Below, piece by piece: positions 7,597 to 57,493 of a DNA stretch of 64,000 nt. The notes under the pieces were generated by a model. It was not told the origin of the DNA. It saw nothing but the letters and a program-made list of their open reading frames with translations, and did not search any database. Numbering within the stretch: position 1 is the stretch's first letter; the number at the start of each line of letters is the position of its first letter. Source of the stretch: Minisyncoccia bacterium (GTDB taxonomy: Bacteria > Patescibacteriota > Minisyncoccia > Phycocordibacterales > UBA9973); NCBI GenBank assembly GCA_039809265.1, contig JBDHUR010000001.1:5914-69913 (forward strand), given 5' to 3'. The translations under genes and the position numbers were made by a program.

Positions 7597-9072
7597 TTAC
7601 TGTATCACATCCCAAGTTATTTCTACACGTCCAGGTTGTCCATCTTCTCCTGAGTAATAAGGTAATTGTCCTATGCAAGGGGCTGGGGTTGTTCCGCCGC
7701 CACCTCCAGTGTTACCGCCACCTCCAGTGTTACCGCCACCTCCAGTAGTCCCTCCACTACTACCACCATCTCCACCATCTCCATCTTCTCCAGGATTATT
7801 ACCCGTAGCCACAATTACAGAAGTAAGTTGCGAGCTCTTTCCATTATTTTTAATAGCTTGTGTATTAGTGTAACCCCCGCCCCCACCACCAATACCGCCT
7901 TTTCCATATATATTTCCACTACCTCCAAGACCTGCCGAACCTCTAGGACCAAAGATAACACAAGAATTAAGTATACTTCCATAAACATTAATCATAGAAC
8001 CAGAACTTCCAGAAAGTCCAGCACTTTGACCTGCAATACCGGCTCCTGCAATACCAGCATTACTACCACTTGTACATGGACTAGAATTTGATATTATCCC
8101 ACCATAAGTGTATGTGTAACATAAATATTTTACCTTGCTATTGGGTTGAGTTGCTATAAAATGTAAATCCCCACCCCTACCACCACCACCACCAGAAACA
8201 CTTTTATTTCCAACACTCGTGCTACCTCCGTCAGCTCCATTTTGACCTAAATAGAAATTAGCATTTCCTCCACCCGCACCAGCCAGAAAGTCTTGTATAA
8301 TTTTTCCACCTGCTCCTGGGCTACCAACAACGATAGAAATTGGACCTGAATTGTTTGGTATAGAAAATTGCTCATATGCGCCACCACCACCGCCGCCGCC
8401 TGAAGGGAAGGAAGTACCATCAGCATACCAAGCACTCCAAGTTTTTATATTACCATTATCAACGTTGGGATATGATGGAGCTGCATAATTTCCACCTCCA
8501 CCTCCAGCACCCCACATCTTAACTACAATATTTTTCGCATTTACAGGTGGAGTAAAATTATTTGGTGAAGAATTTCCAAGCGAACCGGAAGTAACCTGTA
8601 CACCATTTGCTATAGTATATATTTGTGTCTGTGGAGTTGCAGTAGGATCAGGTGGTGTTTGCTGACACAATACAAGTTTACCACTACTATCAGCACAGAC
8701 TTGATTACTTTCACTGTTAGTCAAAGTACTGACGTATGTGTTGCCATTTATTCGTAAATCAGAAGTGATATTTGGCAAACCTGTACCGGTTCCACCAGCA
8801 GCCAAACCTACAAATGTATTACCTAAAAGATAAGAATTTCTCCAAGACATAAATACACCAGAAGATCCCGCCACTGCTAGGCCTCCATACTTTGTTTGGT
8901 TTATAGGGCTGACATTTAGCGGAGCTTGTGGATTACAAGAAGAAGGGTTTGTACAACCAGATGGCGGTGGTGCCCACGAACCAGTAGATTGCGCAGAAAC
9001 AAATAGTGTTCCCGCTCCAACAAGTATTGCTACTGTTAAAACTTTTACTGCTTGGATAAATTCTTTTTTCAT
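7597..9072 (-). CDS. Secreted glycine-rich repeat protein (signal peptide; poly-Gly blocks; C-terminal GGGGNT repeats)
   Basis: 491 aa; N-terminal 'MKKEFIQAVKVLTVAILVGAGTLFVSAQS'; many GGGGG tracts; low complexity. Confidence 0.6.
   Translation of the reverse strand: MKKEFIQAVKVLTVAILVGAGTLFVSAQSTGSWAPPPSGCTNPSSCNPQAPLNVSPINQTKYGGLAVAGSSGVFMSWRNSYLLGNTFVGLAAGGTGTGLPNITSDLRINGNTYVSTLTNSESNQVCADSSGKLVLCQQTPPDPTATPQTQIYTIANGVQVTSGSLGNSSPNNFTPPVNAKNIVVKMWGAGGGGGNYAAPSYPNVDNGNIKTWSAWYADGTSFPSGGGGGGGAYEQFSIPNNSGPISIVVGSPGAGGKIIQDFLAGAGGGNANFYLGQNGADGGSTSVGNKSVSGGGGGRGGDLHFIATQPNSKVKYLCYTYTYGGIISNSSPCTSGSNAGIAGAGIAGQSAGLSGSSGSMINVYGSILNSCVIFGPRGSAGLGGSGNIYGKGGIGGGGGGYTNTQAIKNNGKSSQLTSVIVATGNNPGEDGDGGDGGSSGGTTGGGGNTGGGGNTGGGGGTTPAPCIGQLPYYSGEDGQPGRVEITWDVIQ
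7694..7750. repeat. 18-bp tandem repeat (~2.7 copies) ccgccacctccagtgtta inside the Gly-rich gene
   Basis: Direct reading: two perfect and one diverged unit, encoding GGGGNT x3 on the minus strand. Confidence 0.8.
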
Positions 9073-9478: not shown

Positions 9479-11239
9479 TTAAAACTCTATAAATATCGGC
9501 TTTTTAGGTCCAGATGGGCCAGGTGGCCATGGAGTATCATCTCCAATAACTTTAACATATACCCTGTCTGTAAGATATCCACCAGAAGTTGTGCCAGATG
9601 TACCTGTAGGACAGTCTATTTGAAATATTGTGTTACCTGTTATGGCGAAAGGTCCTTCTGTGCCGCTCGGATTTCTTGTACCAGACCAAGTGTTATTGGA
9701 AGAATAAACAGTACACATGCTAAATATGTCTGTGGTATTCCATTGTAAATCAACACTTCCTCCACCCAGTGGGAGCTGGATAGCTGTTGTGAATGTATGA
9801 GCACCCACAAAACTACTTGTTCCGGTTTTCTTCCCTTCTAAGTTTAATGCTGGATGTAAATCTTGCGACGCGCGTATTGCAATAACTGTATTTGAAAATA
9901 CATCTATATGGTTATCAGGATCAACACATTTCATCTGATAAGTCGTTGTGCTTGAAACGGACCCAGCGAGTAAATAGAAACTCTTTGGTGTAGAATAGGT
10001 TGTTGTAGGATTTGGTTGAAGAAAAGCACCGTTATCCCAATCTTGTGTTGTTCCAGTACCAGAAACAGCTTCACAACCAACAAGACCGTTTGCTCCGGTA
10101 ATATTTGATTTCCATGCTAATTTTGCATATGTAGAATTATAAGGATATGTTTGAGAAACAGTACCTCCTGATCCACAACTAGGAGAAAGTAGTCCCGTTG
10201 AATCTGTTATACAAAGCTCAAGTGTCTTATCTGTTTGTGGCCAAGAAACAAAAGTATCTGCATGCATAGTGTTGCCATCAGCATCAAAACAATCTACACG
10301 GAAATGGGTGTCTTGATACGGAACAAAGACTGAGCCGACAGTGCGAGTTATGTTTGCTCCGGAAAGAGTAAGCAGGTTTCCCGTCCAGTTTGGTACTGCT
10401 TGTGAAGCACCTGTAATATTGTCTACAGCCATTCCTCCAGCACACGAAGTATAGTTCACTCCCGGGTCAGTAGAATACGTAAGCGACGTATAGTGGCTTG
10501 TACTTGCACCAGTGTTATTCAGATAAAGTGTAAGCGGTACATCTTGTGGATCTTCTGGCTCAGGATCGCCTTCGTACTTCACACCAGACATGTCTATCCA
10601 TCCAGGACCAACGTATTTATCTATACCAAGAGCTGACTCACCCACAGTTCCCACGACATCTGCACTCCAAGCATATCCAGAAAATGGATAGTTAGTAGAG
10701 CCAGCTGGAGATGGAGTAGTGGACATTACCACATTTCTGCTTGTGCCATCAAAGGAAACCCAGCCATCCCAGCCGCCAGAGTTTGTGCCTGTGGCACCAG
10801 CACAGCCTGTCGGAGTTACAGCAGGAGCACAGAACCTTGCCCAGCCTATTATCCTTTGGTTTCCGGGGTTGCCGACTATGCGAGCATTTATTGCTGTAGC
10901 TGTCGGGTCCGTAGTTGGGAAGCCGGATAGTCCGCCAAACTTCAGCCAGCCCACATTGTCCGTACCAGCCACAGAGTCCCGAGGGTTTGCCCAAGCGTAG
11001 CCGTGCAGGAAACCATTACTGTCCACAGTAACTTTGTAGTTTGATCCGGTGCAACCGCTAGCGGTTTTGCAGTTGAAGCTGATAGTGCCAAAGTTCGCCG
11101 AGTACGCACTGCCAGAGAGTTCTGGTATAGCAGCCACAGTTATCTGCGCGTCTGCCACCTTTGTGTATCTTGAAAGACCGATGCCAGAGACAGCAAGCGC
11201 GAGAAGTGCAAATATGATGTATCCTTTCTTGATCTTCAT
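9479..11239 (-). CDS. Large secreted protein of unknown function (Thr/Gly/Ser-rich, likely beta-rich surface protein)
   Basis: 586 aa; signal peptide 'MKIKKGYIIFALLALAVSGIGL'; no enzymatic motif. Confidence 0.6.
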   Translation of the reverse strand: MKIKKGYIIFALLALAVSGIGLSRYTKVADAQITVAAIPELSGSAYSANFGTISFNCKTASGCTGSNYKVTVDSNGFLHGYAWANPRDSVAGTDNVGWLKFGGLSGFPTTDPTATAINARIVGNPGNQRIIGWARFCAPAVTPTGCAGATGTNSGGWDGWVSFDGTSRNVVMSTTPSPAGSTNYPFSGYAWSADVVGTVGESALGIDKYVGPGWIDMSGVKYEGDPEPEDPQDVPLTLYLNNTGASTSHYTSLTYSTDPGVNYTSCAGGMAVDNITGASQAVPNWTGNLLTLSGANITRTVGSVFVPYQDTHFRVDCFDADGNTMHADTFVSWPQTDKTLELCITDSTGLLSPSCGSGGTVSQTYPYNSTYAKLAWKSNITGANGLVGCEAVSGTGTTQDWDNGAFLQPNPTTTYSTPKSFYLLAGSVSSTTTYQMKCVDPDNHIDVFSNTVIAIRASQDLHPALNLEGKKTGTSSFVGAHTFTTAIQLPLGGGSVDLQWNTTDIFSMCTVYSSNNTWSGTRNPSGTEGPFAITGNTIFQIDCPTGTSGTTSGGYLTDRVYVKVIGDDTPWPPGPSGPKKPIFIEF

Positions 11240-14884: not shown

Positions 14885-15925
14885 ATGAAAATAGACATAA
14901 AGAAACTAGAAAAAAGCCAGGTAGAAATAACTGGAGAGATTGGGGCAGAAAAATTCGCTTTGTACCGCCCACAAGCTGTAGAGATAATAGGCAAAGACAT
15001 AGAAGTAGACGGCTTCCGCAAAGGCAAAGCTCCAGCGGAAATCATAGAAAAGAAAATACTCCCTTCTGCAATACTAGAGGAAATGGCCGAGCTTGCCATT
15101 AGCGAAGCATATCCAAAGATATTGAAAGAGAACAAGATAGACGCCATCGGCAGACCGGAAGTACTCATAACAAAGCTTGCTCTGGACAACCCTTTGGGCT
15201 TCAAGATAGTAACCGCTGTCATGCCGGAAGTTAAACTTGGCGACTACAAAAATGCTTGGAAAAAAGTAAAACAAGAAAATGCTGAGCCGGCTACCGACAA
15301 AGAAGTAGAAGATGCGATACTTGAAGTCCGCCATATGCGCGCACACAACGAACTTCATAAAAATGATAAACCGGGCGAGCACACTCCGCACGACCCAATA
15401 AAAGACGAAGACTTGCCAGAGCTGACAGACGAATATGTACAAAGCTTTGGCCCATTTAAAACGGTAGACGAATTTCGGGCAAAGATGAAAGAAAATCTTA
15501 CTTTAGAAAAAGCCGACAGAGCAAAAAGCAAATCTCGCGCAGAACTTGTAGAGGAACTTTTGAAAGATGCCGAGCTTGATGTACCGCAAGTCATCATTGA
15601 CTCTGAGATAGATAAAACTATATTCAAAGTGAAAACTGATGTAGAACAAGCTGGCATAAAATACGAGGACTACCTAAAACAAATAAACAAAAAGGATGAG
15701 GAAATCCGCACAGAAATCGCTCCTGATGCTGAAAAACGAGCAAAGCTAGAAATAGTTTTGCAAGCTATTGCAGAAAAGGAAAACCTAAAGCCAGATGAGA
15801 AAGCAGTAGAAGAGCAAGTCTCACATCTGCTAGAACACTACAAAGGCGCAGACCCAATTCGTACCAAAGTTTACATAGAGACGATAATGAAAAACGAGCT
15901 GGTCTTCAACTTCTTGGAGAAGTAA
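14885..15925 (+). CDS. tig: Trigger factor, short form lacking the FKBP/PPIase domain
   Basis: 346 aa; N-terminal ribosome-binding signature 'VDGFRKGKAP'; upstream of clpP as in tig-clpP operons; too short for a PPIase domain. Confidence 0.75.
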   Translation: MKIDIKKLEKSQVEITGEIGAEKFALYRPQAVEIIGKDIEVDGFRKGKAPAEIIEKKILPSAILEEMAELAISEAYPKILKENKIDAIGRPEVLITKLALDNPLGFKIVTAVMPEVKLGDYKNAWKKVKQENAEPATDKEVEDAILEVRHMRAHNELHKNDKPGEHTPHDPIKDEDLPELTDEYVQSFGPFKTVDEFRAKMKENLTLEKADRAKSKSRAELVEELLKDAELDVPQVIIDSEIDKTIFKVKTDVEQAGIKYEDYLKQINKKDEEIRTEIAPDAEKRAKLEIVLQAIAEKENLKPDEKAVEEQVSHLLEHYKGADPIRTKVYIETIMKNELVFNFLEK

Positions 15926-21801: not shown

Positions 21802-22530
21802 TTATGAATGAATCGCAGAAGTCACCAGGAGAATAAATACAACTCCCAATACTGTCATAGCTACAGTTTTCCAAGACGAATGTTTTGAATGAGCCTCTGG
21901 CAAAATATCTGACACACCTATGTATAGCAAGAATCCTGCGAAGAATCCTAGATATATAAGTAGCGCTTTCTCTGGTAATGTAAAAAGTAAAGTGGATAAT
22001 CCACCCAAAACAGGAGCAATAGCGTCTACATAAAGAAATTGCCTCGCTCTTTTTTCTGTATTCTTGTGACGCAACATCAAAGAAACGGTATTCAGTCCGT
22101 CTGAGAAGTCGTGAGCGATCACTGCCAAAGCTACCAGCACACCGACAGCAGTATCTACTTGAAAACCAAGTCCGATACCAATTCCATCCAAAAATGAATG
22201 GCCAGCAAGAGCAAGTGCTTGAAACTTTCCTACAATTGGATGCGAATGCTCCTTGTACTCGTCTTCATGTGAATGATGTATCAAGAGCATCTTTTCCGCA
22301 ATATGAAAAAGCAAAAAAGCACCCACAAGAGCAAGCATGGGATATATAGGATCAAGCCCTGTCTTCCCCGTCAGCTCCACAATTTCAGGAAAAATATCAA
22401 AAGCTATAACAGCCAAGATAACTCCTGCAGTAAAGCCCAGTACCAAGTGAAGTTTATTTTTATACTTCAGCCCAACCAGCCCGCCAGCAAAAGTAGAAAA
22501 GAATGTCAAAAAAATAAAAAGTAGCGCCAT
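21802..22530 (-). CDS. ZIP-family divalent metal (Zn) transporter
   Basis: 242 aa; His-rich loop 'HHSHEDEYKEHSH', 'HDFSDGL' ZIP signature, ~8 TM. Confidence 0.8.
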   Translation of the reverse strand: MALLFIFLTFFSTFAGGLVGLKYKNKLHLVLGFTAGVILAVIAFDIFPEIVELTGKTGLDPIYPMLALVGAFLLFHIAEKMLLIHHSHEDEYKEHSHPIVGKFQALALAGHSFLDGIGIGLGFQVDTAVGVLVALAVIAHDFSDGLNTVSLMLRHKNTEKRARQFLYVDAIAPVLGGLSTLLFTLPEKALLIYLGFFAGFLLYIGVSDILPEAHSKHSSWKTVAMTVLGVVFILLVTSAIHS

Positions 22531-24994: not shown

Positions 24995-25066
24995 GCACCC
25001 GTGGTGAAATGGATATCATACCGGTCTTCGGAACCGTTGTTGGGGGTTCGAATCCCTCCGGGTGCA
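24995..25066 (+). tRNA. tRNA-Arg (anticodon UCG), CCA not encoded
   Basis: Acceptor gcacccg/cgggtgc; D-stem gtga/tcat; anticodon loop cttcgga (U33, anticodon tcg); T-arm ggggg-ttcgaat-ccctc; 72 nt. Confidence 0.6.
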
Positions 25067-25081
25067 CAAAACTTTGGCTTT

Positions 25082-26587
25082 ATGAGCCACGACATAACAA
25101 AACCAATAAATAATAAACTTATACCCAGAGAAGTGCTCGGGGTAGTGGAGACGCTAGAGAAAGCGGGATTTGAAGCGTACTTGATCGGCGGATGCGTACG
25201 AGATCTTATTCTAGGCAGCACACCAAAGGACTGGGACGTAACAACCAACGCTGTCCCTGAGCAGATAGTTTCTTTGTTTTCAAAGACAGTTTACGAAAAT
25301 GACTTTGGGACAGTGGCCGTTATAGACGAATCATTGGACGTTAACCCAAAATTAAAGGCCATAGAAGTAACGCCTTATAGAACAGAAGGGAAATATAGTG
25401 ATTTTCGTCATCCAGATAAAGTATCTTTTAGTAAAGACATAAAGGACGACCTGCAAAGACGAGACTTCACGGTCAATGCGCTAGCCTACAACCCATCTAA
25501 AGGACATTTATTGGACTTATACGACGGTATAAAGGACATAAAAGACAGAAGGCTACGAACTGTGGGGGAAGCCTCTTTGCGCTTCACAGAGGACGCTTTA
25601 CGCATGATGCGTGCTATTCGCTTCTCCTGCCAGCTTGGCTTCACCATATCTTCCGAAACCATAGTAGGCATAACAGAAAATGCACCCCTCTTGAAGAATA
25701 TCTCCATGGAACGTATCCGGGACGAATTTATAAAAATAATAAATTCACCAGAACCTATGGTTGGGGTGGGAATGCTTGCCAAACTTGAACTTTTGCATTA
25801 CTTCGTGCCAGAGCTTGAAGAGGGTATAGGCTGCGAACAAAAAGGTGAGCACATATACGACGTTTTTGAACACATGCTTCACGCGCTAGAACATGCAAAG
25901 GAAAAAGGCTGGGATTTTGACATACGTTTGGCTGCGCTCTTGCACGACATAGGCAAGCCACGCACCAGACGCTGGGACGGCACAAAAGCAGGCGGAAGAG
26001 GGAAGTACACTTTCTATGGACACGAAGTAGTCGGAGCACGAATGGTAAAAAAAATATTAGAACGCTTACGCTTACCAAAAGATATTTCAGAGAAAGTAGA
26101 GAAACTTGTGCGATACCACATGTTTTTCTCTGATACAGAGACCATTACTTTGTCTGCTGTACGCCGTACCATAGTAAATGTCGGAAGGGAAAATATCTGG
26201 GAACTTATGAAGGTTCGTGAATGCGATAGAGCAGGGATGAGAAAGCCGGAAGCCCCATACCGCCTTCGTAAATACCACGCTATGATAGAGGAGGCTTTGC
26301 GGGCACCAACTTCTGTAGCAATGCTAAAGATAAAAGGAGAAACGCTGAAAGAGCTTGGCATAGAGCCAGGGCCAAGAATGGGCTTCATCCTGCACGCTTT
26401 GCTTGAAGAGTGTCTGGAAGATGATGCGAAAAATGGAATAGCATATTTGGAATCCCGTGCACTTGAACTAAATACTTTGCCAGATGCAGACTTGCGCAAA
26501 CTCGGCGAGAAGGGGAAGGAGAAGAAAGAGGAAGTAAACGAATCAGAGATAACCAAACTACACGAGAGACATAAGGTTAGAAAATAA
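25082..26587 (+). CDS. cca: CCA-adding tRNA nucleotidyltransferase with C-terminal HD domain
   Basis: Start at MSHDITKP (ORF-track start lies inside the tRNA); 'GGCVRDLILG...DWDVTT' pol-beta head, 'RRDFTVNALA', HD motif 'LLHDIGK'. Confidence 0.8.
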   Translation: MSHDITKPINNKLIPREVLGVVETLEKAGFEAYLIGGCVRDLILGSTPKDWDVTTNAVPEQIVSLFSKTVYENDFGTVAVIDESLDVNPKLKAIEVTPYRTEGKYSDFRHPDKVSFSKDIKDDLQRRDFTVNALAYNPSKGHLLDLYDGIKDIKDRRLRTVGEASLRFTEDALRMMRAIRFSCQLGFTISSETIVGITENAPLLKNISMERIRDEFIKIINSPEPMVGVGMLAKLELLHYFVPELEEGIGCEQKGEHIYDVFEHMLHALEHAKEKGWDFDIRLAALLHDIGKPRTRRWDGTKAGGRGKYTFYGHEVVGARMVKKILERLRLPKDISEKVEKLVRYHMFFSDTETITLSAVRRTIVNVGRENIWELMKVRECDRAGMRKPEAPYRLRKYHAMIEEALRAPTSVAMLKIKGETLKELGIEPGPRMGFILHALLEECLEDDAKNGIAYLESRALELNTLPDADLRKLGEKGKEKKEEVNESEITKLHERHKVRK

Positions 26588-26590
26588 AAA

Positions 26591-26857
26591 ATGAAAACAA
26601 TACATAAATCATTCACACAAAAAGTACTAGAGGTGGTTCGGAAAATTCCGAAAGGAGAAGTACTGAGCTATGCAGATGTGGCGCGGCGAGCGGGTTCTCC
26701 GCGAGCCGCGCGGGCCGTTGGAAGCATAATGAAAGCAAACTTTCGTCCTGACGTGCCATGCCATAGAGTTATAAAAAGTGATGGAACACTTGGAAACTAT
26801 AATCGCGGAGCGAAAAAGAAATTTGCATTATTAAAAGCAGAAGGATATATAAAATAA
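26591..26857 (+). CDS. Minimal methylated-DNA-protein-cysteine methyltransferase (MGMT C-terminal domain only)
   Basis: 88 aa; active-site 'PCHRV' motif retained, plus 'YADVA...G..RAVG' helix-turn-helix. Confidence 0.7.
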   Translation: MKTIHKSFTQKVLEVVRKIPKGEVLSYADVARRAGSPRAARAVGSIMKANFRPDVPCHRVIKSDGTLGNYNRGAKKKFALLKAEGYIK

Positions 26858-26888
26858 AACTCCCTGCACGCTAGCTTGCAGGGAGTTG
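26857..26888. terminator. Bidirectional terminator hairpin
   Basis: aactccctgca-cgctagc-ttgcagggagtt. Confidence 0.6.
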
Positions 26889-26898
26889 ATTTTTCGCC

Positions 26899-28230
26899 TT
26901 AATTCTTGGCGAATTTTTTAGAAAGTGTTTTACTTTTATCTTCTATAAGAAGTGTATAAACTCCGGGTAGCAGGTCACTCACATTCAAACTATTTACTGC
27001 AACAGACTTCTTAATAAAAGAACCCTTTGCATCATAAACAGTAAGAGAAGCCTTGTCGGAAATACCTGACACATACAATACATCTGTGGTCGGATTCGGA
27101 TATACCAACACTTGGGGCAGAGCGTTTTGTAATTGCGTAAGACTTGTAGTAGAAGACAAAGACAGGAGCAGATTTATCCCAGACTGAGCAGGGAAATAGT
27201 TTGCTATTGGGCAAGCAATATCTTGCTTGCCGTCACCATTGTAGTCCGCGATGCAAAGCGAATGCACCGGCAAGACAAATGAGTACTGAGAAGCGAACAA
27301 AGTCCCATTACCAGACTTATCTGCAATAGTTATACCGCTGTTACTGACAAATACAAACTCTTTTGTGCCGTCTGCATCCAAATCTACTACGGAAATATCG
27401 TTTGCATCGTAAGCAGTGGATGGTAAGGGACTTATGTTGGGAGTAGTATTTTGTCCCAAACTGAACTCGTACAAACTTCCAGATGAAGCAGCATACAACT
27501 TGCCATCACTCACAGTGTAAGACGCTATATTGCCGAGTGAGTAAGCGGTTAAAACATTACCAGCAAAATCTTGCTCTATGATACCGCTTGGCGTCCGCGC
27601 AAATATCTGACTACCATAGAACACAAAGTCGTCTCGCCATTCGGGTGTCACTATCTCTGTGATCGTAAACCCAGCGGCAGAAGGCTCTGCCAGAGAATAC
27701 GATGGTGTATAGATTGGGAGTTGAAAATGAGAGATTAAGATCTTCCCAGTTGCTTCATCTATAGCAAAGTTTTCTGTAGTACGGTTTGCATGGTAAGTAT
27801 TTACTTGCCCAAAAGTTCCATTTGGATTTTGGTAAGAAATACCTATAGAGTCATACAAGTTCAGCACCACATCCTGCAGGCCATCTCCATCGTAATCATG
27901 AAGACCTATGTCGTGGGTTACGCTATTGTACAGCTGGCTCTGAGGAGAAGGTACATATGAATACGATCCCGAAAGAGAGAAGCCGCCTTGGCCATCTCCG
28001 AGTAAAACATTGAAACGAAAATCCGTTGCAAAGTTTATTAGACCCGAGTAGCTGTTGTTGAACACGATGTCCATACGGCCATCGGCATTTATATCTTTAG
28101 CTATCATACCCTCGGGGCGTGTGCCGGAAGATATAAACGTGGTGCCATAAGTCTGCGCAAATGCTTTTGCAAAGAATACAGTGCAAAGATAAAGCGCAAT
28201 AAATAGCAGGAGAAATACTTTCTTTTTCAT
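26899..28230 (-). CDS. Secreted FG-GAP/VCBS-repeat protein with T9SS-type C-terminal sorting domain-like tail
   Basis: 443 aa; signal peptide; repeats 'DINADGRMDIV','HDYDGDGLQDVV','VDLDADGTKEFVF','ADYNGDGKQDIA'; C-term 'VYPNPTTDVLYV...LTVYDAKG...LLPGVYTLLIEDKSKT'. Confidence 0.6.
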   Translation of the reverse strand: MKKKVFLLLFIALYLCTVFFAKAFAQTYGTTFISSGTRPEGMIAKDINADGRMDIVFNNSYSGLINFATDFRFNVLLGDGQGGFSLSGSYSYVPSPQSQLYNSVTHDIGLHDYDGDGLQDVVLNLYDSIGISYQNPNGTFGQVNTYHANRTTENFAIDEATGKILISHFQLPIYTPSYSLAEPSAAGFTITEIVTPEWRDDFVFYGSQIFARTPSGIIEQDFAGNVLTAYSLGNIASYTVSDGKLYAASSGSLYEFSLGQNTTPNISPLPSTAYDANDISVVDLDADGTKEFVFVSNSGITIADKSGNGTLFASQYSFVLPVHSLCIADYNGDGKQDIACPIANYFPAQSGINLLLSLSSTTSLTQLQNALPQVLVYPNPTTDVLYVSGISDKASLTVYDAKGSFIKKSVAVNSLNVSDLLPGVYTLLIEDKSKTLSKKFAKN

Positions 28231-28422
28231 AATTATATGTTTTTGAATTTACTTTTTCCTTGTCATTGTATCAGGAAAAAGTCATTTTGTCAAGGTAAAA
28301 ATGGGGAAAACCAGAGAAGGTTACAGGCGCAGAGAACCACCAACTGCACCTGTGAAAAACAACCAGCCATGAAAAGTCTTGTATTTAAAATAAAGATTTA
28401 ACTTGTACGAAGAGTAACAGCA

Positions 28423-29196
28423 CTAAAGGTCAAAGTCAAGCAAAATAGGGCAGTGATCGCTGCCATAGTAATCTGCGAGTGTTTTGAATTTTTCTACATT
28501 TTTTACAAAAGCAGAATTTACAAAAAAGTAATCTATCCGCCAGCCCACATTTCTGTCGCGAGCCTTAGTCTTTTGATCCCAATAAGTGTATACATCTTTC
28601 GTATTTGGGTACATGTGGCGAAAAACATCTACATACCCATGCGCCACAACTTCGTCGAGCCACGCTCTTTCTTCAGGTAAAAATCCAGTATTCTCTTCAT
28701 TTTCTTTTGGTCTGGCAAGATCTAGAGAAGTGTGTGCAGTATTTACATCTCCACAAAAAATTATATTTTTCTTTTGCTTTTTCAAATTGTCTATAAAAGA
28801 TAAAAATGCATCATAGAAGCGCAGTTTGTAATCCAGCCTGTGCGGCCCTCCACCGCCATTCGGGAAATAGCAATTCAAGAGAACAAAGTTATCATAATGT
28901 GCAACAAGCGTGCGACCTTCATCGTCAAATTCTTTTATGCCTATGCCGTATTCCACCTTCTCCGGCTCATACTTGGAATATATCGCTACGCCGCTATAGC
29001 CCTTTTTTACCACAGAAGAAGAAAAGTATGCGTAGTAATTTTTATAGTGTGCAACATTTTCCGGCAGCTGCTCTTTGTCAGCCTTTGTCTCTTGCAAGCA
29101 AAGTATGTCTGGTTTGTATTTACTGAAAATTGGTTCAAAATTGCCTTGCTTTGCTGTCGCCCGCAAGCCATTGGTATTCCAAGAAATTATCCTCAT
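28423..29196 (-). CDS. xth: Exodeoxyribonuclease III (AP endonuclease)
   Basis: Start at MRIISWNTNGLR; 'LCLQETK', C-terminal 'SDHCPILLDFDL' EEP-family motifs. Confidence 0.85.
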   Translation of the reverse strand: MRIISWNTNGLRATAKQGNFEPIFSKYKPDILCLQETKADKEQLPENVAHYKNYYAYFSSSVVKKGYSGVAIYSKYEPEKVEYGIGIKEFDDEGRTLVAHYDNFVLLNCYFPNGGGGPHRLDYKLRFYDAFLSFIDNLKKQKKNIIFCGDVNTAHTSLDLARPKENEENTGFLPEERAWLDEVVAHGYVDVFRHMYPNTKDVYTYWDQKTKARDRNVGWRIDYFFVNSAFVKNVEKFKTLADYYGSDHCPILLDFDL

Positions 29197-49252: not shown

Positions 49253-49654
49253 TTGATTTATGAAATGGAGTATACTATAGGCATGCGAAGGCTTTTATTT
49301 GTATTATTTTTCTTTGTTTTAGTATTTACTACTATCATCGGTCAAGCAATGGCCGCTGGGGCATCTCTTGGCATCCCGATCGGCGGGCTTATAACGACTA
49401 CTAATGTACCACCCAATGTTATCTGCTCAACGGGTATAGGGCCGATAACTATCAAGGTTGCTGGTAAAGGTAGCACTAGCCCATACCTAGCCACCTTTGC
49501 AGGGAATAGAACACCGCAAAATCAAGCCTCATCTGGCCGTTGGTTCCTTGGTCTTTACCAGCCTGGGTTAGGTTGCGTCCAAGAAAATGGCCCTGAGTCT
49601 CATCCATACCCCACACTAAATTGGATAATATATGGGGTTTCTGGAATGAAATAA
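49253..49654 (+). CDS. Small secreted protein
   Basis: 133 aa; signal peptide 'LLFVLFFFVLVFTTIIGQAMA'. Confidence 0.45.
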   Translation: MIYEMEYTIGMRRLLFVLFFFVLVFTTIIGQAMAAGASLGIPIGGLITTTNVPPNVICSTGIGPITIKVAGKGSTSPYLATFAGNRTPQNQASSGRWFLGLYQPGLGCVQENGPESHPYPTLNWIIYGVSGMK

Positions 49655-49656
49655 AC

Positions 49657-50595
49657 ATGCATTCATATTTGCCCAGTAAAAAATTCGTGCAGACATTCCT
49701 TATTCTTGCAGCTGTTTTTATAATCGGCTACTTTTTGTACCACATAGTTTTCAAAAAAGACGGCAAGATACCTTTCATTTCCGGTAATAAAGATTCTTCG
49801 GCTAAACTGGAGACCAAAGAAATAGTACTGCAAGACTTGATGGAAAAGGACACGGACGGAGATGGTATAAAAGACTGGGAGGAAGCACTCTGGGGCACAG
49901 ACCCAGAAAAATCAGACACGGACGGAGATGGTATTTCCGATTTTGACTATATAGAAAAGCGCCGCGAGGAAGTGCGCCAAGCTTCAGGCACTCCCGACCA
50001 AGAACTCTCAGATACCAATGCTACAGACGTTTTTACCAAGGAATTCTTTGCTGCGATAGTGGCGCTGCAACAGTCCGGCCAGCTGAACAGCCAAACACTT
50101 GCCGACCTTTCCAAACAACTTGCGGGTAACATTGGCCAGCAAAAGAGCTTGCCAGACATTTATAGCATCACGGATATAAAAATTGTATCTAACCCATCGC
50201 GAGCAGATATGCAAATATACGGCCAAGCAGTACAAGCCATGAGCAGCTCGTATTTTGCTAAAGGCATAGGCACAGAGCTGGATGTAACTTCAAATGCGCT
50301 AAGCACTGAAGACCCTGCTGAATATGCCAAGATTGCCAGCATTGCAAATGCTTATGCCGACTTTGCTGGAAAACTTGTCGCGCTCCAAACACCCGAAGAT
50401 ATAAGCGTGGATGTATTGAACCTTGCCAATAACATGCAGAAGTCCGCCAAAGCTTTGCAAAATATTTCCGCCATTCCAACCAATGAGCTGATAGGCATCA
50501 TCGGCATAAGCCAGTACAGCACATATAGCGACGACATGGTTAACTCGTTCACAAGTTTATCTAACTACTTGCAAAATAATGGTATACTGCAATAA
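49657..50595 (+). CDS. Membrane-anchored protein with thrombospondin-type-3-like Ca-binding repeats
   Basis: Start at MHSYLPSKK; TM 'FLILAAVFIIGYFLY'; repeats 'DTDGDGIKDWEE','DTDGDGISDFD'. Confidence 0.5.
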   Translation: MHSYLPSKKFVQTFLILAAVFIIGYFLYHIVFKKDGKIPFISGNKDSSAKLETKEIVLQDLMEKDTDGDGIKDWEEALWGTDPEKSDTDGDGISDFDYIEKRREEVRQASGTPDQELSDTNATDVFTKEFFAAIVALQQSGQLNSQTLADLSKQLAGNIGQQKSLPDIYSITDIKIVSNPSRADMQIYGQAVQAMSSSYFAKGIGTELDVTSNALSTEDPAEYAKIASIANAYADFAGKLVALQTPEDISVDVLNLANNMQKSAKALQNISAIPTNELIGIIGISQYSTYSDDMVNSFTSLSNYLQNNGILQ

Positions 50596-50598
50596 GTA

Positions 50599-53325
50599 AT
50601 GCAAAGATACAAAAGAAAATTACATACTGCGCTATCTCTTGTACTAGGAATATCTGTCTTTGCGCAAAGCTTTATTGCAATCATAACACCACAGACAGCA
50701 TACGCGCAAAATGCTAGTGCGAGCGCCTTTGCTGGACTAGGTTCCATCGCCGGAGCAGGAGTTGGCTGTCTTTTGGGTAATGCTTTCTCAGGAACCGGAC
50801 TCTTTAGCTCTGCTGACGGAAACACAACTGCGGGAATGGAAGTACCTACTGGAGACAAGGGGACTAGAGGAAATACTAGCGCACAGAAACAAAAAGAAAA
50901 CTGCCTAGACGCCATAGCTTATGCTGCAGCAAAAGCTTTACTGAAAAAATTTACTCAAGCTACTATAGTCTGGATAAACAGCGGTTTTAAAGGCGAGCCT
51001 CTGTATATAAAAAATCCTGAGTCATTTTTTAAAAGCATAGCGAACGAACAACTGGGTGGAATTATTTCCACATTAAGCAATACAGACAAGGTTCCATTTG
51101 GTAAAGACTTAGCAAGAAGCATTATCCTCTCCACGCAAGCAACTTTTGCAAAAAAGATTGAATACAATTTAAATAAAATAATAAGTCCAGATAGGGTGTA
51201 TCGTTTTCAAGCAGACTTTTCTGCTGGAGGCTGGGACGGCTGGTTAGGAGCGACCCAATTCCCACAAAACAATACTATCGGGGCACACATCGTAACCGCA
51301 GACGAGGTTACATATAAACTCTCTGGTACAGCTAAAGCGCCCGCCGAATATTTACAAGATGAATTAAGTCAAGGTATGGGATTTCTTGGACTAAAGAAGT
51401 GCGTTCAAACTTCAGATGGAAAAACAGCTGCCGACTATAATTACGAAGAATCAACAAATGAATCAATAGAAGACATAGATCCAAAAAAAATCACATGTAC
51501 TCGTTGGGAAACAATTACCCCTGGAACAGCTATTGCAAACCAAATGAACCTAACATTAGGCACATCTCAGCGACAACTAGAACTTGCAGATGAGCTAAAT
51601 GAAAGTATTGCTGGGGTATTTGATGCTCTTTTTAGTCAACTTTTAAACAAAGGTCTAGCCTCTTTGGGCAACAGCTCTTCTTCTAGTGGATATAATGTGG
51701 GTATCTATGGTGGTTATGGAAACAACTCTAATAACTCTAGCCTAAATAGTAACGGTAACCCATACGGGGTAGAGGATCCAGACCAATGGTATAACCAAAA
51801 CCCTACATTTAATATTTGGCATGACCTACAGACTATTATAGACGTTCAGCAAAAAGTCTACGATGATCTTCAAAAAGAAAATTCTGCATTACAAAATCTT
51901 ACAACTGCAATATATGAACTAGACTTTTGTGTGCCTGGACCAAACCCACTATGGTACGATAACGCGCAACAAACAGTAAACGATTTCTTTGGAGATATCC
52001 CTCAAAAGGCTGATGATCTTGGAGATAAGTTACGAAAAGCAAATAAATGGTTTGACCCAGGGGGTATGGTTATGGCTTCTACAGGCTGGGCAAACGAACT
52101 AGGTTTAAACCCACCAGGGTCAAACGGCTGGTCTCAACAAAGAATACAAGAACTGTATGCAAAATTCCTAAAGCAAGCCATAAACTTCTCTGGCGAAGAT
52201 GACGAAACAATGACCTCAGAACATATATCTTCTTTGGGTAGCATTGTGCTTGAACAATATGCTTCAAAAATAAGCTCAAAATACGGCGTATCTGGCTTAC
52301 ACCAAGCTGGAGAATATATGCCGACAGTGGCAGCAAGCTTGCCAAAGCTATACAACAACATACCTAGATACTTAAACCAAATTGACACCAACAACACAAA
52401 GATGGATGACTTTGAAGGTATTATCCGCCAACTTCAATCTATAAGCGTTGCGGTTAAAGATATCCCAGAGGACCCAGACAACCAAACAAGTGCCGACAAA
52501 ACCGCAATAACTACATATCTAAGAATTATAGGTAGCATGGCACAATATATGGCAAGCGAAAGTGTTATACAAACACTGGAAGACGAACTATTTGCTATAA
52601 ATGGCATATACGACATGGTGGCAAATGGAAATAATAGCTTGATAAATCAATGCAAGACAGAACTACGCACAACAAGTCCGACTGGAATAGACTCTTCTAA
52701 TATAAAAGGTTTACGTTTTGCTTACCCTACAGACTTGTTGCCACAGTCTATACAAGATGCATACACAGGCAACCTTGGTGGATATATGACACATCAAATG
52801 TACAAATTCGGTACTTCATATCTTCCGGGAACTTTCTACAAGAGCAATGTAAAGCAGACTAGCTGGCAGTGGCCTTCCCTAGACTCATTAACACACCAGT
52901 ATGATATGAGATCATATTTTACACCAAGCTTTTCTCAAAAATCTGCATTATACGATCAACGAGCGGGTAAATATAACCCAGATATTCCAGGACTATGGGC
53001 ATGGTGCACGGCAGAAGGATTCCAATACACAACAGTAGTAAATAATGCAGTTCAAGCAACAAATCTTGGAATACAATTAGGGCAATCGTACACATTTACG
53101 ATACCAGCGCCGTCCAATAATTCAGGCTTTGGAACAACTCCAGCTCTTTGTAATCCTAGTTTACCTGACAACAATGGTACGGTGATAAAAAACGACCCTA
53201 ATATTAGTGACTTTACATTAAATAGAGCGCTAGACTTTATAGATGTTACAAGTTCTGGTTTGCAAGTTAATAGACCGGACCAAACTAACCTTGCTGGATT
53301 CGAATCATTCCTTGGAATTTATTGA
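50599..53325 (+). CDS. Large (908 aa) secreted protein, first gene of the T4SS-like block
   Basis: Signal peptide 'LSLVLGISVFAQSFIAIITPQTAYAQNASA'; Asn/Gly/Ser-rich; no enzymatic motif. Confidence 0.55.
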   Translation: MQRYKRKLHTALSLVLGISVFAQSFIAIITPQTAYAQNASASAFAGLGSIAGAGVGCLLGNAFSGTGLFSSADGNTTAGMEVPTGDKGTRGNTSAQKQKENCLDAIAYAAAKALLKKFTQATIVWINSGFKGEPLYIKNPESFFKSIANEQLGGIISTLSNTDKVPFGKDLARSIILSTQATFAKKIEYNLNKIISPDRVYRFQADFSAGGWDGWLGATQFPQNNTIGAHIVTADEVTYKLSGTAKAPAEYLQDELSQGMGFLGLKKCVQTSDGKTAADYNYEESTNESIEDIDPKKITCTRWETITPGTAIANQMNLTLGTSQRQLELADELNESIAGVFDALFSQLLNKGLASLGNSSSSSGYNVGIYGGYGNNSNNSSLNSNGNPYGVEDPDQWYNQNPTFNIWHDLQTIIDVQQKVYDDLQKENSALQNLTTAIYELDFCVPGPNPLWYDNAQQTVNDFFGDIPQKADDLGDKLRKANKWFDPGGMVMASTGWANELGLNPPGSNGWSQQRIQELYAKFLKQAINFSGEDDETMTSEHISSLGSIVLEQYASKISSKYGVSGLHQAGEYMPTVAASLPKLYNNIPRYLNQIDTNNTKMDDFEGIIRQLQSISVAVKDIPEDPDNQTSADKTAITTYLRIIGSMAQYMASESVIQTLEDELFAINGIYDMVANGNNSLINQCKTELRTTSPTGIDSSNIKGLRFAYPTDLLPQSIQDAYTGNLGGYMTHQMYKFGTSYLPGTFYKSNVKQTSWQWPSLDSLTHQYDMRSYFTPSFSQKSALYDQRAGKYNPDIPGLWAWCTAEGFQYTTVVNNAVQATNLGIQLGQSYTFTIPAPSNNSGFGTTPALCNPSLPDNNGTVIKNDPNISDFTLNRALDFIDVTSSGLQVNRPDQTNLAGFESFLGIY

Positions 53326-53459
53326 GCCTTGTGAGAATAAAAATATATAAATGACCTAGGTTTTCCACCTCATAGACGAGTGAAGTATGGAAAGTAGTGT
53401 TATAATTGAAACGTATTTCTTGCTTTGATAGGCAGTTTCTGTGTACACGAAATATTTTC

Positions 53460-56400
53460 ATGTTTAAGAAAATCGTACTAATAGCTACAATATTTGGCAT
53501 CTTCGGCGGCTTATTTACACCAGCGTTTTCTGTGAAAGCGTGGGCAGAGGCTGACTTACAAAAAATAACTATTTCTATTAGTGTTAATACCATACAAGAA
53601 GATAAATCTAATGGTAAATACTCAGCAATCATACCTGTAGTTATTAAATCAAATTTTAAAGAATTTGGAGATCACACTATCCATCTAGATATCTACAGCG
53701 CAGCTCCAGGAGGAAAAGCTGAGAAGAAGGTCAGTAAAGAATTCACTCCTCATATAGACAAACCGAAAGATGAGTTTATAGAACAAACATTTCTAACACA
53801 GACAGATGCGGTTTTAGAAAAAGGTTATGGCTATTCGGCTATTGCTTTCATTTCATTACCACAACTAGCTGGGCAGACTACTCCTGGACAATGGATTATT
53901 GGACCGAACGGTATTCCCGTTGTCTCCTTTCCACCCAAGACAACAAATACTTATACTCCACCAATATCCAACACCTCAATTTTTACAATAAAAACCGACG
54001 GCTCTACAAGCATTGCGAATGAAGATAGTAGTGGTACACAAAATACAGCACAAAACGTAACCTCAAACGAACCTTCTGCTCTTCCAGAATGTAATATTCT
54101 TTACTCCAGCACATGGCCTGGTTGTATTGCTCGAGTTATATATTATATTTTTTTTATACCAACATCTTTTGTGTTTGGACTCAGTGGTCAGTTTTTAGAC
54201 TGGGGAACAAGTTTCACTATAGACTCAAATTCATACAAAGGCAGTGCAGCTACTTTCATTGAATCTGGATGGAAAATAACACGTGATATTGCAAACATAC
54301 TATTCATATTCATACTCCTCTGGGTTGGCATAGGCACAATACTAGGCTCACACAGTGTAGATGCAAAGAAGACAATAGGTATGGTGATAATTATAGCTCT
54401 CCTGTTAAATTTCAGCTTGTTTTTTGCCAGAGTAATAATAGACGCATCTAATATTCTGGCTGGGGTTTTTTATAATCAAATAGACGTGCAAGATGAAGGA
54501 TCCAACAACCAATGGGTATTCAGTGATAAAAATGTAAAAAATATTTCCACGGCTATAGTTAGTAAATTTAACCCACAAAAGCTTTTTGCTCAAGCTGGAA
54601 CACTTAAGATAAACACCGGCACAGGTGTAAAGGATGGATCAACAGATGGTGGAACGAATGGTGAACCAGCCCCCGGACAATTCATAATAATCACACTCAT
54701 AATGTCTGTTATAAACTGTATAGGTATTTGGGTATTTTTCTCTGTTGGCTTCCTATTTCTTTCTCGTGTAGCAGGACTTTGGCTTGCTATGATATTTGCA
54801 CCATTGGCATTCATATCATACATACTTCCTTCTAGTTCTGCGGGAGCGCTGGGAGACATGCATCATAGTAAGTGGTGGGGCAACCTTGTTCGCTTGGCAA
54901 TGATGGTGCCAATGTTTATGTTCTTTATGTATCTCATACTCATGTTCATGAATACAAACTTCATAGCAAATGCAATGGGAGACAAAACCACAACACTTGC
55001 GATACTTGGAGTAGTAATACCGTTGCTCATCATTGTAGTACTTCTACAAAGAGCAAGGAAAATAGTGGTAGACTGGTCTGGAGAACTTGGTAAAATGGCA
55101 GCACAGGCAGGCACAGCTGTGGCTGGATTTAGTGTGGGCGCACTGACAGGCGGAGCAGCGATGCTTGGCCGTGGTACTATTGGCAGACTCGCCAACAAAG
55201 CTGCGAGCAGTGAAGAGTTAAAAGATAGAGCAGCAAAAGGAGACAGGATGGCAAAAATGCAACTAAAAAGCGCAGAATTTCTATCAAAATCAAGTTTTGA
55301 TGCTCGCAACACAACGGTTGGAAATAAAGTTTCTCAAGCAACAGGCATGAACCTGAATAAGGGTTTATCTTTTGCCGGTCTGAATACCAAATCCACAGAA
55401 GGTGGCTGGGTAGGACTACAGGCAAAAAAGGCAGAAAAGGAAGCAAGTAGATGGAAAGACAGTTATGACCACCACGCTTATGAACAAGAAGAAGAAAAAG
55501 TAAACGCCGAAAAAGAAAAGCAATCAAAAAACAAAGATATAAAAGAAGATATACAAAACAAAATACGTGTGGAGAAAGCAGCCATAACAACAATGGCAGA
55601 TGGATCTCAAGAAAAAAAGGACGCACAGCGACGTGTTCAAAAACTAACAGAAAGCTTATCTATAGTTGATACAAACATTAGAGCATATGAGAAAGGTGGT
55701 AAAACATATGCCATAAACTCAAACGGAGAATATGTAGATAAAAACGGTAAAGTTGTGACAGACAAGAAAGACGCACACATGGAAGAGTCTTTGGGTATAC
55801 AAAAGATGGAGAAAAACAAAGAGCGCTTAAAAACAGCGAGACAAAAAAACCACGAATCTGTTTTGCGTCGAAAATCTGGTAAACGATATCTGGATGACGA
55901 AAGAGATGAATTGGGTAATATAAAGAAATTTGGTGAAGAAATAACCCCTGGTTTGGAAAAGAAACTGAGAAAAGAAAAAGACGAAAAAAATAAAGAAAAA
56001 AATGAAGCCCTGCAACACAGGCTTGATATAGGAAAAGATATAAATGATGTAAATCAAAAAATGAAAGAAGCGGCAAAAAAAGTAAGCGAGGCACAAAAAA
56101 AGGGAGATAAAGCACTTATAAAATCTACAAGCGACGCACTTAAAGGTTTAGTAGAACAAAGAAAGCAGCTAGAAAAATCTCAAAATGATGCAAAAGAAAA
56201 ATCTGACACCTTAGTAAAAGAATTTAATAAGGTTTCCAACAAGCTTGGTAAAGTAGAAGTAGCTAATCTTAAAACAAACTATAACGGTGTAAGGCAAGTA
56301 CTAAGAGAACTTGGCGAAGGTGCGGCTAGGGGCGCAGCAGTAGGTGCAGCAGTAGGGACTGCTATTCCTGGAGCAGGCACGTTTGCTGGAGCTGGAGTAG

Positions 56401-56594
56401 GAGCAGTCATGGGTGGACTTAGACAAGTACTTGAATACAGTGGTACCACGAACAGAAGTATTGCAAATGGACACATTCCACACTACCATGGTAGTGGCTC
56501 AACATACAGAGAGCCTAGCGGTGGTGGACAAGACACACCATCGGCATCTTCACACAGTGGAGGAGGTGGAGGAGGGGATCATTCACACCACTAA
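53460..56594 (+). CDS. VirB6/TrbL-like polytopic membrane protein with N-terminal secreted domain and long Lys/Glu coiled-coil C-terminal tail
   Basis: Start at MFKKIVLIATIFG; signal peptide, ~230-aa extracytoplasmic domain, 6-7 TM helices between aa ~245 and 560, ~500-aa hydrophilic tail ending Gly/His-rich. Confidence 0.55.
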   Translation: MFKKIVLIATIFGIFGGLFTPAFSVKAWAEADLQKITISISVNTIQEDKSNGKYSAIIPVVIKSNFKEFGDHTIHLDIYSAAPGGKAEKKVSKEFTPHIDKPKDEFIEQTFLTQTDAVLEKGYGYSAIAFISLPQLAGQTTPGQWIIGPNGIPVVSFPPKTTNTYTPPISNTSIFTIKTDGSTSIANEDSSGTQNTAQNVTSNEPSALPECNILYSSTWPGCIARVIYYIFFIPTSFVFGLSGQFLDWGTSFTIDSNSYKGSAATFIESGWKITRDIANILFIFILLWVGIGTILGSHSVDAKKTIGMVIIIALLLNFSLFFARVIIDASNILAGVFYNQIDVQDEGSNNQWVFSDKNVKNISTAIVSKFNPQKLFAQAGTLKINTGTGVKDGSTDGGTNGEPAPGQFIIITLIMSVINCIGIWVFFSVGFLFLSRVAGLWLAMIFAPLAFISYILPSSSAGALGDMHHSKWWGNLVRLAMMVPMFMFFMYLILMFMNTNFIANAMGDKTTTLAILGVVIPLLIIVVLLQRARKIVVDWSGELGKMAAQAGTAVAGFSVGALTGGAAMLGRGTIGRLANKAASSEELKDRAAKGDRMAKMQLKSAEFLSKSSFDARNTTVGNKVSQATGMNLNKGLSFAGLNTKSTEGGWVGLQAKKAEKEASRWKDSYDHHAYEQEEEKVNAEKEKQSKNKDIKEDIQNKIRVEKAAITTMADGSQEKKDAQRRVQKLTESLSIVDTNIRAYEKGGKTYAINSNGEYVDKNGKVVTDKKDAHMEESLGIQKMEKNKERLKTARQKNHESVLRRKSGKRYLDDERDELGNIKKFGEEITPGLEKKLRKEKDEKNKEKNEALQHRLDIGKDINDVNQKMKEAAKKVSEAQKKGDKALIKSTSDALKGLVEQRKQLEKSQNDAKEKSDTLVKEFNKVSNKLGKVEVANLKTNYNGVRQVLRELGEGAARGAAVGAAVGTAIPGAGTFAGAGVGAVMGGLRQVLEYSGTTNRSIANGHIPHYHGSGSTYREPSGGGQDTPSASSHSGGGGGGDHSHH

Positions 56595-56636
56595 TTCAAC
56601 ACTTGAAAAATGAAAAGTAGGGTATACTAAGAACAT

Positions 56637-57476: not shown

Positions 57477-57493
57477 TAGCTGAAAGCTGCCTT

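Follow-up and report, generated by a model that had tools for sequence, protein, structure and literature searches.

A type IX secretion-type C-terminal domain on a predicted secreted FG-GAP propeller protein in a Patescibacteria genome

Introduction

Type A cargo proteins of the Bacteroidota type IX secretion system (T9SS), such as NucA and FspA of Flavobacterium johnsoniae (PDB 8glk and 8glj), RgpB, PorZ, and mirolase, consist of a Sec signal peptide, a passenger, and a seven-stranded C-terminal domain (CTD) of about 70 amino acids (aa). Co-occurrence of the CTD with the T9SS, limited to the Fibrobacterota-Chlorobiota-Bacteroidota (FCB) phyla, is the accepted rule: T9SS genes are reported to be confined to FCB phyla and CTD proteins to species that have a T9SS; Bacteroides spp., without the T9SS core proteins, are the reported exception (PMC11285876). 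The protein presented here (the target) is encoded at 26899 to 28230 on the minus strand of a 64,000-nucleotide stretch (the window; positions 5,914 to 69,913 of contig JBDHUR010000001.1, assembly GCA_039809265.1) from a genome of the Candidate Phyla Radiation (CPR; Patescibacteria). Like type A cargo, it combines a predicted Sec signal and a passenger with a CTD that carries the PNP, Lβ3-β4 Gly, GxY, and basic C-terminal motifs. It differs from that cargo in its CPR genome, with no T9SS, outer-membrane, or lipopolysaccharide (LPS) gene in about 84 kb, and in being a lone CTD protein, not one among tens in the same genome.

Other described proteins resemble the target in part. A diderm FCB-type family (P0015, P0005, P0006, P0017, and P0105) has the same length class and domain order, 22 to 27% identity over at least 90% of the length, and a clearly related CTD (for example, LIVYPNPATNSIFIS...GVYTLL in P0015). 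Relative to this family, the target is without the first propeller blade and occurs in a CPR instead of a diderm context, and its middle blades (aa ~140 to 270) are degenerate, a feature shared only with one homolog, P0124. Integrin-alpha-type FG-GAP/VCBS propellers (CRTAC1, PDB 9etn) have the same DxDxDG loops and all-beta propeller. CPR genomes, including those of Peregrinibacteria, encode extracellular FG-GAP proteins with a proposed role in attachment and with strain variation (PMC4736985); the target, predicted to be extracellular as well, is much smaller than the cysteine-rich giants of CPR (443 versus ~1,650 aa), and it carries a T9SS-type tail, which those FG-GAP giants are not reported to have.

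The CPR has been placed within a clade described as monoderm (bioRxiv 10.1101/2021.05.31.446380), and Patescibacteria, Paceibacteria among them, have received genes comparatively often from Bacteroidota (PMC12455944). No report linking T9SS CTDs with CPR, Patescibacteria, or Parcubacteria was found in the literature searched for both together.

The C-terminal domain and the propeller

The CTD of the target spans aa 375 to 443 (26902 to 27108, minus strand) and was predicted to form a seven-stranded, immunoglobulin (Ig)-like beta-sandwich. It matched TIGR04183 (T9SS type-A sorting domain; NCBIfam) with 42.8 bits (cutoff, 23) over aa 376 to 443 and model positions 1 to 72 of 72, and PF18962 (Por_Secre_tail; Pfam) with 42.2 bits (cutoff, 27) over aa 376 to 440 and model positions 1 to 73 of 75. 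The TIGR04183 match reaches the last residue (443) of this Sec signal-bearing protein. An earlier note on this DNA, made from the sequence without database searches, had likened the tail to Por-type C-terminal domains and named a search with these two hidden Markov models (HMMs) as the check; the likeness held, with both models above their curated cutoffs. The family motifs VYPNP, G403, G423-x-Y425, and C-terminal KKFAKN are all present, and residues Y377, P378, N379, P380, G403, G423, and Y425 were invariant in CTD alignments. In T9SS cargo, the Lβ3-β4 glycine and the C-terminal motif matter for secretion (PMC11285876).

A profile of the target tail and nine related tails, searched against the sequences of solved structures, matched the CTDs of 5jvk (E = 2.6e-13), 7pzj (2.3e-12), and 8glk_D and 8glj_D (1.1e-9; the NucA and FspA CTDs as bound in the F. 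johnsoniae translocon), followed by those of mirolase (2.5e-6) and PorZ (7e-6). The AlphaFold2 (AF2) model of the whole protein contained seven C-terminal strands at aa 375 to 442 with a predicted local distance difference test score (pLDDT) of 82 to 94, and a model of the CTD only (aa 358 to 443) also had seven strands (pLDDT, 85). In Foldseek comparisons of this predicted structure, the CTD superposed on the NucA CTD (8glk_D) with template modeling (TM) scores of 0.70/0.80 and a root mean square deviation of 2.4 Å, and it also matched the CTDs of FspA (8glj_D), PorZ, RgpB, and mirolase. Because the tail superposes on the solved CTDs of T9SS cargo and its profile hits them, it is, by sequence and predicted fold, homologous to T9SS CTDs and not convergent with them, and it has all of the sequence and fold features of the TIGR04183/PF18962 domain family.

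Among the top matches of the CTD model was also DUF3244 of Bacteroides thetaiotaomicron (4g5a, with E = 3.8e-4, and 3sd2; TM scores, 0.69/0.61). Unlike CTD tails, DUF3244 proteins are stand-alone proteins of ~90 aa, and no sequence-level family match was found. Since DUF3244 comes from a genus reported to be without the T9SS core, the CTD fold can exist without the secretion system, which hints at T9SS-independent uses of the fold inside Bacteroidota.

Preceding the CTD is an FG-GAP (VCBS-type) beta-propeller at aa 26 to 357 (27160 to 28155, minus strand), delimited from FG-GAP_3 matches and the AF2 model, with degenerate middle blades. FG-GAP_3 (PF13517) matched with 64.2 bits (cutoff, 26.9) in five stretches and FG-GAP (PF01839) with 35.5 bits (cutoff, 22.1). 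Exactly four loops with the pattern D-x-[DN]-x-D-G-x-x-[DE] were found, compared to an average of 0.001 in shuffles of the protein, in agreement with the four D-x-D-x-DG-x-x-D repeats counted in the earlier note. These loops, all on the minus strand, are DINADGRMD (aa 46 to 54; 28069 to 28095), DYDGDGLQD (aa 112 to 120; 27871 to 27897), DLDADGTKE (aa 283 to 291; 27358 to 27384), and DYNGDGKQD (aa 329 to 337; 27220 to 27246). In a 55-sequence alignment, D46, D50, and D54 of loop 1 and the columns of D283, D287, and D291 (loop 3) and of D329, D333, and D337 (loop 4) were nearly invariant, and D116 and D120 of loop 2 were invariant. By motif, the loops are of the calcium-binding type, and calcium binding is predicted.

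The whole-protein AF2 model, made from 55 homologs, had a pLDDT of 77 and a predicted TM score (pTM) of 0.71. Residues 28 to 357 were modeled as all-beta, with ~25 strands and pLDDT values mostly from 75 to 95, falling below 50 at aa 198 to 235. Against the PDB, Foldseek ranked PorZ first for the whole model, with generic propellers and the FG-GAP protein CRTAC1 next; TM scores to propellers were 0.35 to 0.51. PorZ itself is composed of propellers and a CTD. Elsewhere in the window, a 324-aa protein (49621 to 50595, plus strand) contains a bacterial TSP3 repeat (PF18884) and two DxDGDGxxD motifs, at nucleotides 49849 and 49915, the only ones in the window besides those of the target; it is probably another calcium-binding surface protein.

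Host genome and search for T9SS machinery

The 80 best relatives of the window PNPase were all from Paceibacteria, Nomurabacteria, or other Patescibacteria metagenome-assembled genomes (MAGs), at up to 65% identity over the full length. By these relatives, the host is a Patescibacteria/CPR genome of the class Paceibacteria, Nomurabacteria-like, consistent with the remark in the earlier note that its other features were not typical of Bacteroidota. Many MAGs among loci L007 to L086 that were assembled as third-party annotation (TPA) entries and whose PNPase groups with Paceibacteria/Nomurabacteria are titled "uncultured Candidatus Saccharibacteria bacterium"; this seems to be a catch-all name and not an accurate placement.

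The remaining window genes comprise housekeeping genes, many genes for large proteins without a family, and a cluster resembling a type IV secretion system (T4SS). The secretion genes present are of the type found in integrative and conjugative elements (ICEs) of Gram-positive bacteria or Mycoplasma (VirB4_plasma, TrsD, CD1110, Mbov_0395 pilin, PrgI, and T4SS_pilin). Window open reading frames (ORFs) of at least 150 aa, together with the called genes in the 10 kb past each end (L107 and L108), were compared to Pfam and NCBIfam, so that ~84 kb of the host genome was covered. No T9SS, outer-membrane, or LPS families were found in these ORFs or in either 10-kb extension, which confirmed for the window the statement of the earlier note that no T9SS machinery was visible there.

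A home-made CTD HMM detected one to two CTDs per diderm metagenome control locus (~20 kb); in the window, L107, and L108 it detected the target only, with no second CTD in the ~84 kb. The same HMM had no match in the ~20-kb syntenic neighborhood of 80 related genomes; these 80 loci represent one syntenic neighborhood and speak for the absence of the gene there, not for the frequency of CTDs genome-wide. Because no machinery and only one CTD were seen in the ~84 kb, and phylum-level knowledge contradicts the required envelope, the label of T9SS substrate does not fit the target, which is best described as an orphan CTD protein.

Origin of the gene

The gene order CCA-adding enzyme-Xth-Xer-NYN-PNPase-hyp300-ComM was conserved in dozens of the 80 related loci, the syntenic neighborhoods of the best PNPase relatives, and none of the 80 contained a homolog of the target. 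In 34 genomes (L008 to L066), the gap between the CCA-adding enzyme gene and xth (26587 to 28423 in the window) measured anywhere between 21 bp and 6.4 kb, and its cargo differed between lineages. Because homologs were absent from all syntenic loci and the gap is variable in content, the target is a lineage-specific insertion between these two genes, at a junction that is variable in Paceibacteria. Cargo seen at this junction in other genomes includes small predicted lipoproteins and secreted proteins (L008, L025, and L051), and multigene inserts were present in L013, L014, L018, and L031.

Relatives across the whole architecture are proteins of ~450 to 470 aa that start with a signal peptide and end in a CTD, the FG-GAP propeller lying between. 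Two of these were located, each on a contig of diderm type: the P0015 contig carries an outer-membrane beta-barrel gene and another CTD protein, and the second contig carries RND and OEP efflux genes and a ~460-aa protein of the same architecture next to a second CTD protein. The target aligned with P0015 at 79.7 bits and with P0072 at 56 bits. P0072 is the one other CPR example, with the same architecture and a CTD scoring 43.4 bits, from an unrelated locus of a Nomurabacteria MAG (GCA_026396015.1). A CPR-specific clade of the target and P0072 was not supported; the target was closer to the diderm P0015, and the similarity between P0124 and P0072 was barely detectable.

Import of the whole gene from an FCB-type donor is the most economical and best-supported origin, and the event was not recent. 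Of the options raised in the earlier note, horizontal acquisition is thus the one best supported, by the insertion in a syntenic block and by the best relatives outside the lineage lying in diderm CTD contigs; its direction is unproven. No compositional sign of recent transfer was seen: the GC content (0.423), third-position GC content (GC3; 0.392), and codon usage distance (0.081) were all typical of the window.

The signal peptides of the target and its relatives are followed by Gln at position +1 of the predicted cleavage site, and this pattern in the window resembles the Bacteroidetes "Q-rule" (PMC5837995). Use of this rule as evidence of a Bacteroidota origin was dropped because four other secreted, CPR-type, family-less window proteins share the +1 Gln. 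Five of about eight credible window signal peptides have it (VSA/QS, ADA/QI, VFA/QS or AYA/QN, ALA/QS, and AFA/QT, with the slash marking cleavage), in the genes at 7597 to 9072 (minus), 9479 to 11239 (minus), 50599 to 53325 (plus), 60492 to 61529 (plus), and 26899 to 28230 (minus). With a crude home-made predictor and a small sample, +1 Gln was found in ~10% of cases in the 80 Paceibacteria loci versus 45% in two diderm loci. A gene for glutaminyl cyclase was not seen in the window.

Maintenance of the gene and its CTD

An identical target protein was indexed in 45 collection blocks, with the same neighbors in every place shown from independent assemblies. The genome of strain L092 was 99.3% identical to the window over 21 kb, with differences concentrated in two tracts. 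The first takes in the promoter region as well as codons 1 to 215 of the target gene (coding sequence [CDS] nucleotides 24 to 645; 27586 to 28207, minus strand) and contains all 63 nucleotide differences of the gene, 47.5 synonymous and 15.5 nonsynonymous (dS, 0.41; dN, 0.031; dN/dS, 0.08). These differences point to purifying selection and to recombination with a diverged relative, itself a carrier of the gene. The second tract (~21870 to 22240; L092 16001 to 16500) is sharply bounded within a ZIP transporter gene (21802 to 22530, minus strand) and has 45 differences in the 3' half of that gene (41 synonymous and 4 nonsynonymous), which suggests a further import by recombination, again under purifying selection.

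HMMER, run exhaustively against 1.84 billion representatives, returned one full-length homolog, P0124. This protein of 447 aa (E = 1.7e-51) is 32% identical to the target and is encoded on a contig of 1,579 bp (L095, from SRR29782982). The 212 bases upstream of P0124 align with the upstream region of the target gene, including a hairpin and the promoter, at a local score of 39 (shuffles, 18.7 ± 2.7), a value reached by 0 of 1,000 shuffles and 0 of 2,000 random Paceibacteria pieces. Because of this significant upstream alignment, P0124 is probably a positional ortholog in a related organism. Its CTD scored 36.2 bits (cutoff, 23), and VYPNPTTD (8 of 8 residues), G403, GxY, and the C-terminal F-x-K are the same in both proteins. 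Identity between the target and P0124 was 33.8% in the CTD and 32.6% in the propeller; since the two values are equal, the CTD has not decayed faster than the rest of this fast-evolving protein. As selection maintains the gene and a divergent probable ortholog keeps the CTD, the target is not merely a fresh, unprocessed import.

Further searches added no relatives. A word-index search with the C-terminal 107 aa yielded nothing (5 candidates), a metagenome scan with the ortholog alignment, in which only generic patterns (VYPNPTTD and the signal peptide) were used, returned unrelated CTD proteins, and a search with P0124 found only P0124 itself.

Explanations for the CTD in a CPR genome

The explanation favored here, to which a probability of roughly 0.6 is given, is that a horizontally acquired FCB-type gene serves as an accessory surface protein gene in this CPR lineage, with export by Sec and retention of the CTD independently of a T9SS. 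The host cell would be monoderm and without a T9SS, so that no outer-membrane translocon would be needed and the signal peptide alone would take the protein across the only membrane by Sec. With PorU absent, the CTD would not be cut off and would persist in the mature protein as a module of Ig-like fold. The calcium-loaded propeller may be an extracellular binding or adhesion module, likened to those that CPR episymbionts are thought to use toward other cells or polymers and in line with the attachment role proposed for extracellular FG-GAP proteins of other CPR bacteria (PMC4736985), and the CTD may be a stabilizing stalk or a noncovalent retention or binding module. In its present host, the CTD would then be homologous to the T9SS signal without functioning as one.

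Several points weigh against this explanation. There is no close donor, the best hits outside the lineage being at most 27% identical, and the composition of the gene is like that of its neighbors; for both reasons, the transfer is old or its direction unproven. The absence of a T9SS and an outer membrane is deduced from ~84 kb and from phylum-level literature, and the adhesin or binding role is drawn from fold and family. The CTD showed zero differences between strains, which makes the strain comparison uninformative on this domain, and P0124 lies on a 1,579-bp contig of an unassigned taxon, its orthology being based on ~110 aligned upstream bases. The CTD may also be retained simply for folding or stability of the propeller, which would leave the notion of a CTD function nearly empty.

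The target is made of ordinary domains, and CPR genomes are known to import genes; an orphan CTD under selection in a CPR genome is the exceptional part. A canonical CTD in a CPR genome is an exception to the rule that the CTD co-occurs with the T9SS within FCB phyla (PMC11285876). Purifying selection acts on the gene, and a divergent probable ortholog keeps the CTD; the domain can thus apparently persist without the secretion system. It follows for annotation that the product name "T9SS type A sorting domain-containing protein" in Patescibacteria MAGs is not proof of a T9SS or of a diderm envelope. The locus also provides a concrete case of probable host-range-type gene flow from Bacteroidota-like donors to ultra-small episymbionts, and the target is a candidate surface protein for work on how such cells contact their partners.

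Among the alternatives, the one that survives best, although it is doubtful, is that the CTD has acquired a new specific function in the CPR cell, for example, docking the epibiont on the CTD-binding proteins (PorV and the attachment complex) at the surface of a Bacteroidota host or acting as a tag for an undiscovered monoderm route of sorting or anchoring. It is consistent with the equal rates of change of the CTD and the propeller down to 32% identity and with the strict conservation of the family motifs, with the independent occurrence of the same architecture in a second CPR lineage (P0072), and with the presence of the CTD fold in DUF3244 of B. thetaiotaomicron, whose genus is without the T9SS core (PMC11285876). 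Bacteroidota also frequently exchange genes and co-occur with Patescibacteria (PMC12455944). However, the residues that are conserved also make up the structural core, and their conservation thus does not point to recognition in particular; only three CPR-context examples were found, and no candidate sorting gene lies nearby. Slightly more doubtful still is the bolder statement that monoderm CPR keep the CTD for something apart from the secretion of its bearer, either molecular mimicry, in which the episymbiont would display a Bacteroidota sorting domain and so dock on the PorV/attachment complex of a T9SS-bearing host, or recognition by an undiscovered sorting or anchoring route of single-membrane cells. 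If true, a new role of this kind would raise a new question in CPR cell surface biology.

It is improbable that the gene is a functionless passenger, that is, a neutrally drifting or decaying import that is useless or not expressed. Such a passenger could well be a singleton with almost no relatives at a variable junction, as the target is, but it would not be expected to show a dN/dS of 0.08 with 47.5 synonymous changes, a reading frame that is unbroken in four alleles and in a homolog of 32% identity, a near-consensus promoter together with a terminator, and fully ameliorated composition.

A shade less probable again is that the target is genuine T9SS cargo, with a T9SS or a minimal derivative elsewhere in this organism or CPR clade and with the CTD directing secretion and PorU-type processing. 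The CTD is fully canonical and well over threshold, it keeps the Lβ3-β4 glycine and C-terminal motif that matter for secretion (PMC11285876), it is retained in P0124, and the machinery search extended over ~84 kb of the genome. Against this stand the placement of the organism in the CPR, a group described as monoderm, and the literature, which confines T9SS genes to FCB phyla; the ~84 kb holds no T9SS, outer-membrane, or LPS gene and a single CTD protein, versus one to two per 20 kb in diderm loci, and the secretion genes present are of the monoderm type. The suggestion in the earlier note that the lineage has a T9SS elsewhere is, for these reasons, unlikely.

That the tail is a convergent beta-sandwich merely resembling a CTD, the remaining option of that note, was dropped as extremely improbable: Ig-like sandwiches are common and the lower Foldseek hits included CD2 and FN3 domains, but all family motifs are present, two curated HMMs matched over their full length, profile E values to solved CTD sequences were 1e-9 to 1e-13, the top structural matches were CTDs of T9SS cargo, and the whole architecture is common to diderm CTD proteins. 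Equally negligible is a Bacteroidota fragment misassembled or misbinned into a CPR contig, because CPR-type genes flank the target on both sides within one 64-kb window, GC content and codon usage are like those of its neighbors, and the same arrangement recurs in every place shown from independent assemblies (NCBI, ENA, JGI, and Logan; contigs up to 413 kb), which rules out chimeric assembly.

Gene structure and neighboring genes

The target CDS (26899 to 28230, minus strand) is complete, with 443 codons and a stop codon in the ORF list and with Pfam and NCBIfam matches over curated cutoffs, and the gene is monocistronic. The signal peptide was read from the sequence as aa 1 to 25 (28156 to 28230, minus strand; MKKKVFLLLFIALYLCTVFFAKAFA, followed by QT), with cleavage by signal peptidase I (SPI) predicted after AFA. 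It begins with MKKK (a KKK n-region), followed by a hydrophobic core and an AxA site (AFA/Q), and the AF2 model has a detached N-terminal helix at aa 2 to 25; the N terminus thus has the features of a predicted Sec/SPI signal peptide. A lipoprotein anchor via Cys16 was ruled out: no lipobox is present, allele P0122 has Tyr at this position, and P0124 lacks the residue. Between the propeller and the CTD lies a Ser/Thr/Leu-rich linker (aa 358 to 374; 27109 to 27159, minus strand; SLSSTTSLTQLQNALPQ), modeled with low confidence and as partly helical.

Upstream of the gene, a sigma-70-type promoter (28265 to 28293, minus strand) was identified by consensus match as TTGACA-17 nt-TACAAT with a TG extension upstream; it agrees with 11 of 12 consensus positions, and the variant strain and the L095 ortholog locus retain its -35 hexamer and, in the -10 region, the TGATA-AAT core. 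Downstream, a bidirectional intrinsic terminator (26858 to 26887; 11-bp stem with T runs on both strands) is common to the target gene and a convergent 88-aa MGMT-type gene (26591 to 26857, plus strand). The product of the latter contains the C-terminal DNA-binding domain of MGMT only (PF01035, 103 bits), with the PCHR motif intact, and has no homolog in the 80 syntenic loci; the gene may have reached the CCA-Xth junction separately or together with the target. On the other side of it, the ORF of the CCA-adding enzyme (25001 to 26587, plus strand) is listed with a GTG start (25001) inside tRNA-Arg(TCG) (24995 to 25067, plus strand), and its true start is probably a downstream Met (MSHDITK..., ~25082).

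The T4SS-like cluster (50599 to 63365, plus strand; L108 5959 to 13441) is CPR-style and includes genes for two large, family-less secreted proteins (908 and 1,062 aa), PrgI-like and TraC-like genes, a VirB4/TraG-type ATPase gene (58610 to 60445), and a gene for a 609-aa protein with a T4SS_pilin domain. Its nearest families all belong to ICE types of Gram-positive bacteria or Mycoplasma, in line with an envelope of one membrane. A protein of 1,902 aa that contains Big_7 and CARDB repeats (L107 13072 to 18780), probably a surface protein, is encoded ~1.4 kb (contig distance) beyond recJ at the left end of the window. The trigger factor gene (14885 to 15925, plus strand) codes for only 346 aa, with Trigger_N and Trigger_C hits and no PPIase domain hit at an E value of ≤0.001. 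The genes dnaA and dnaN were found ~4 kb beyond the right end (L108 15634 to 16983), and the window therefore lies near the replication origin.

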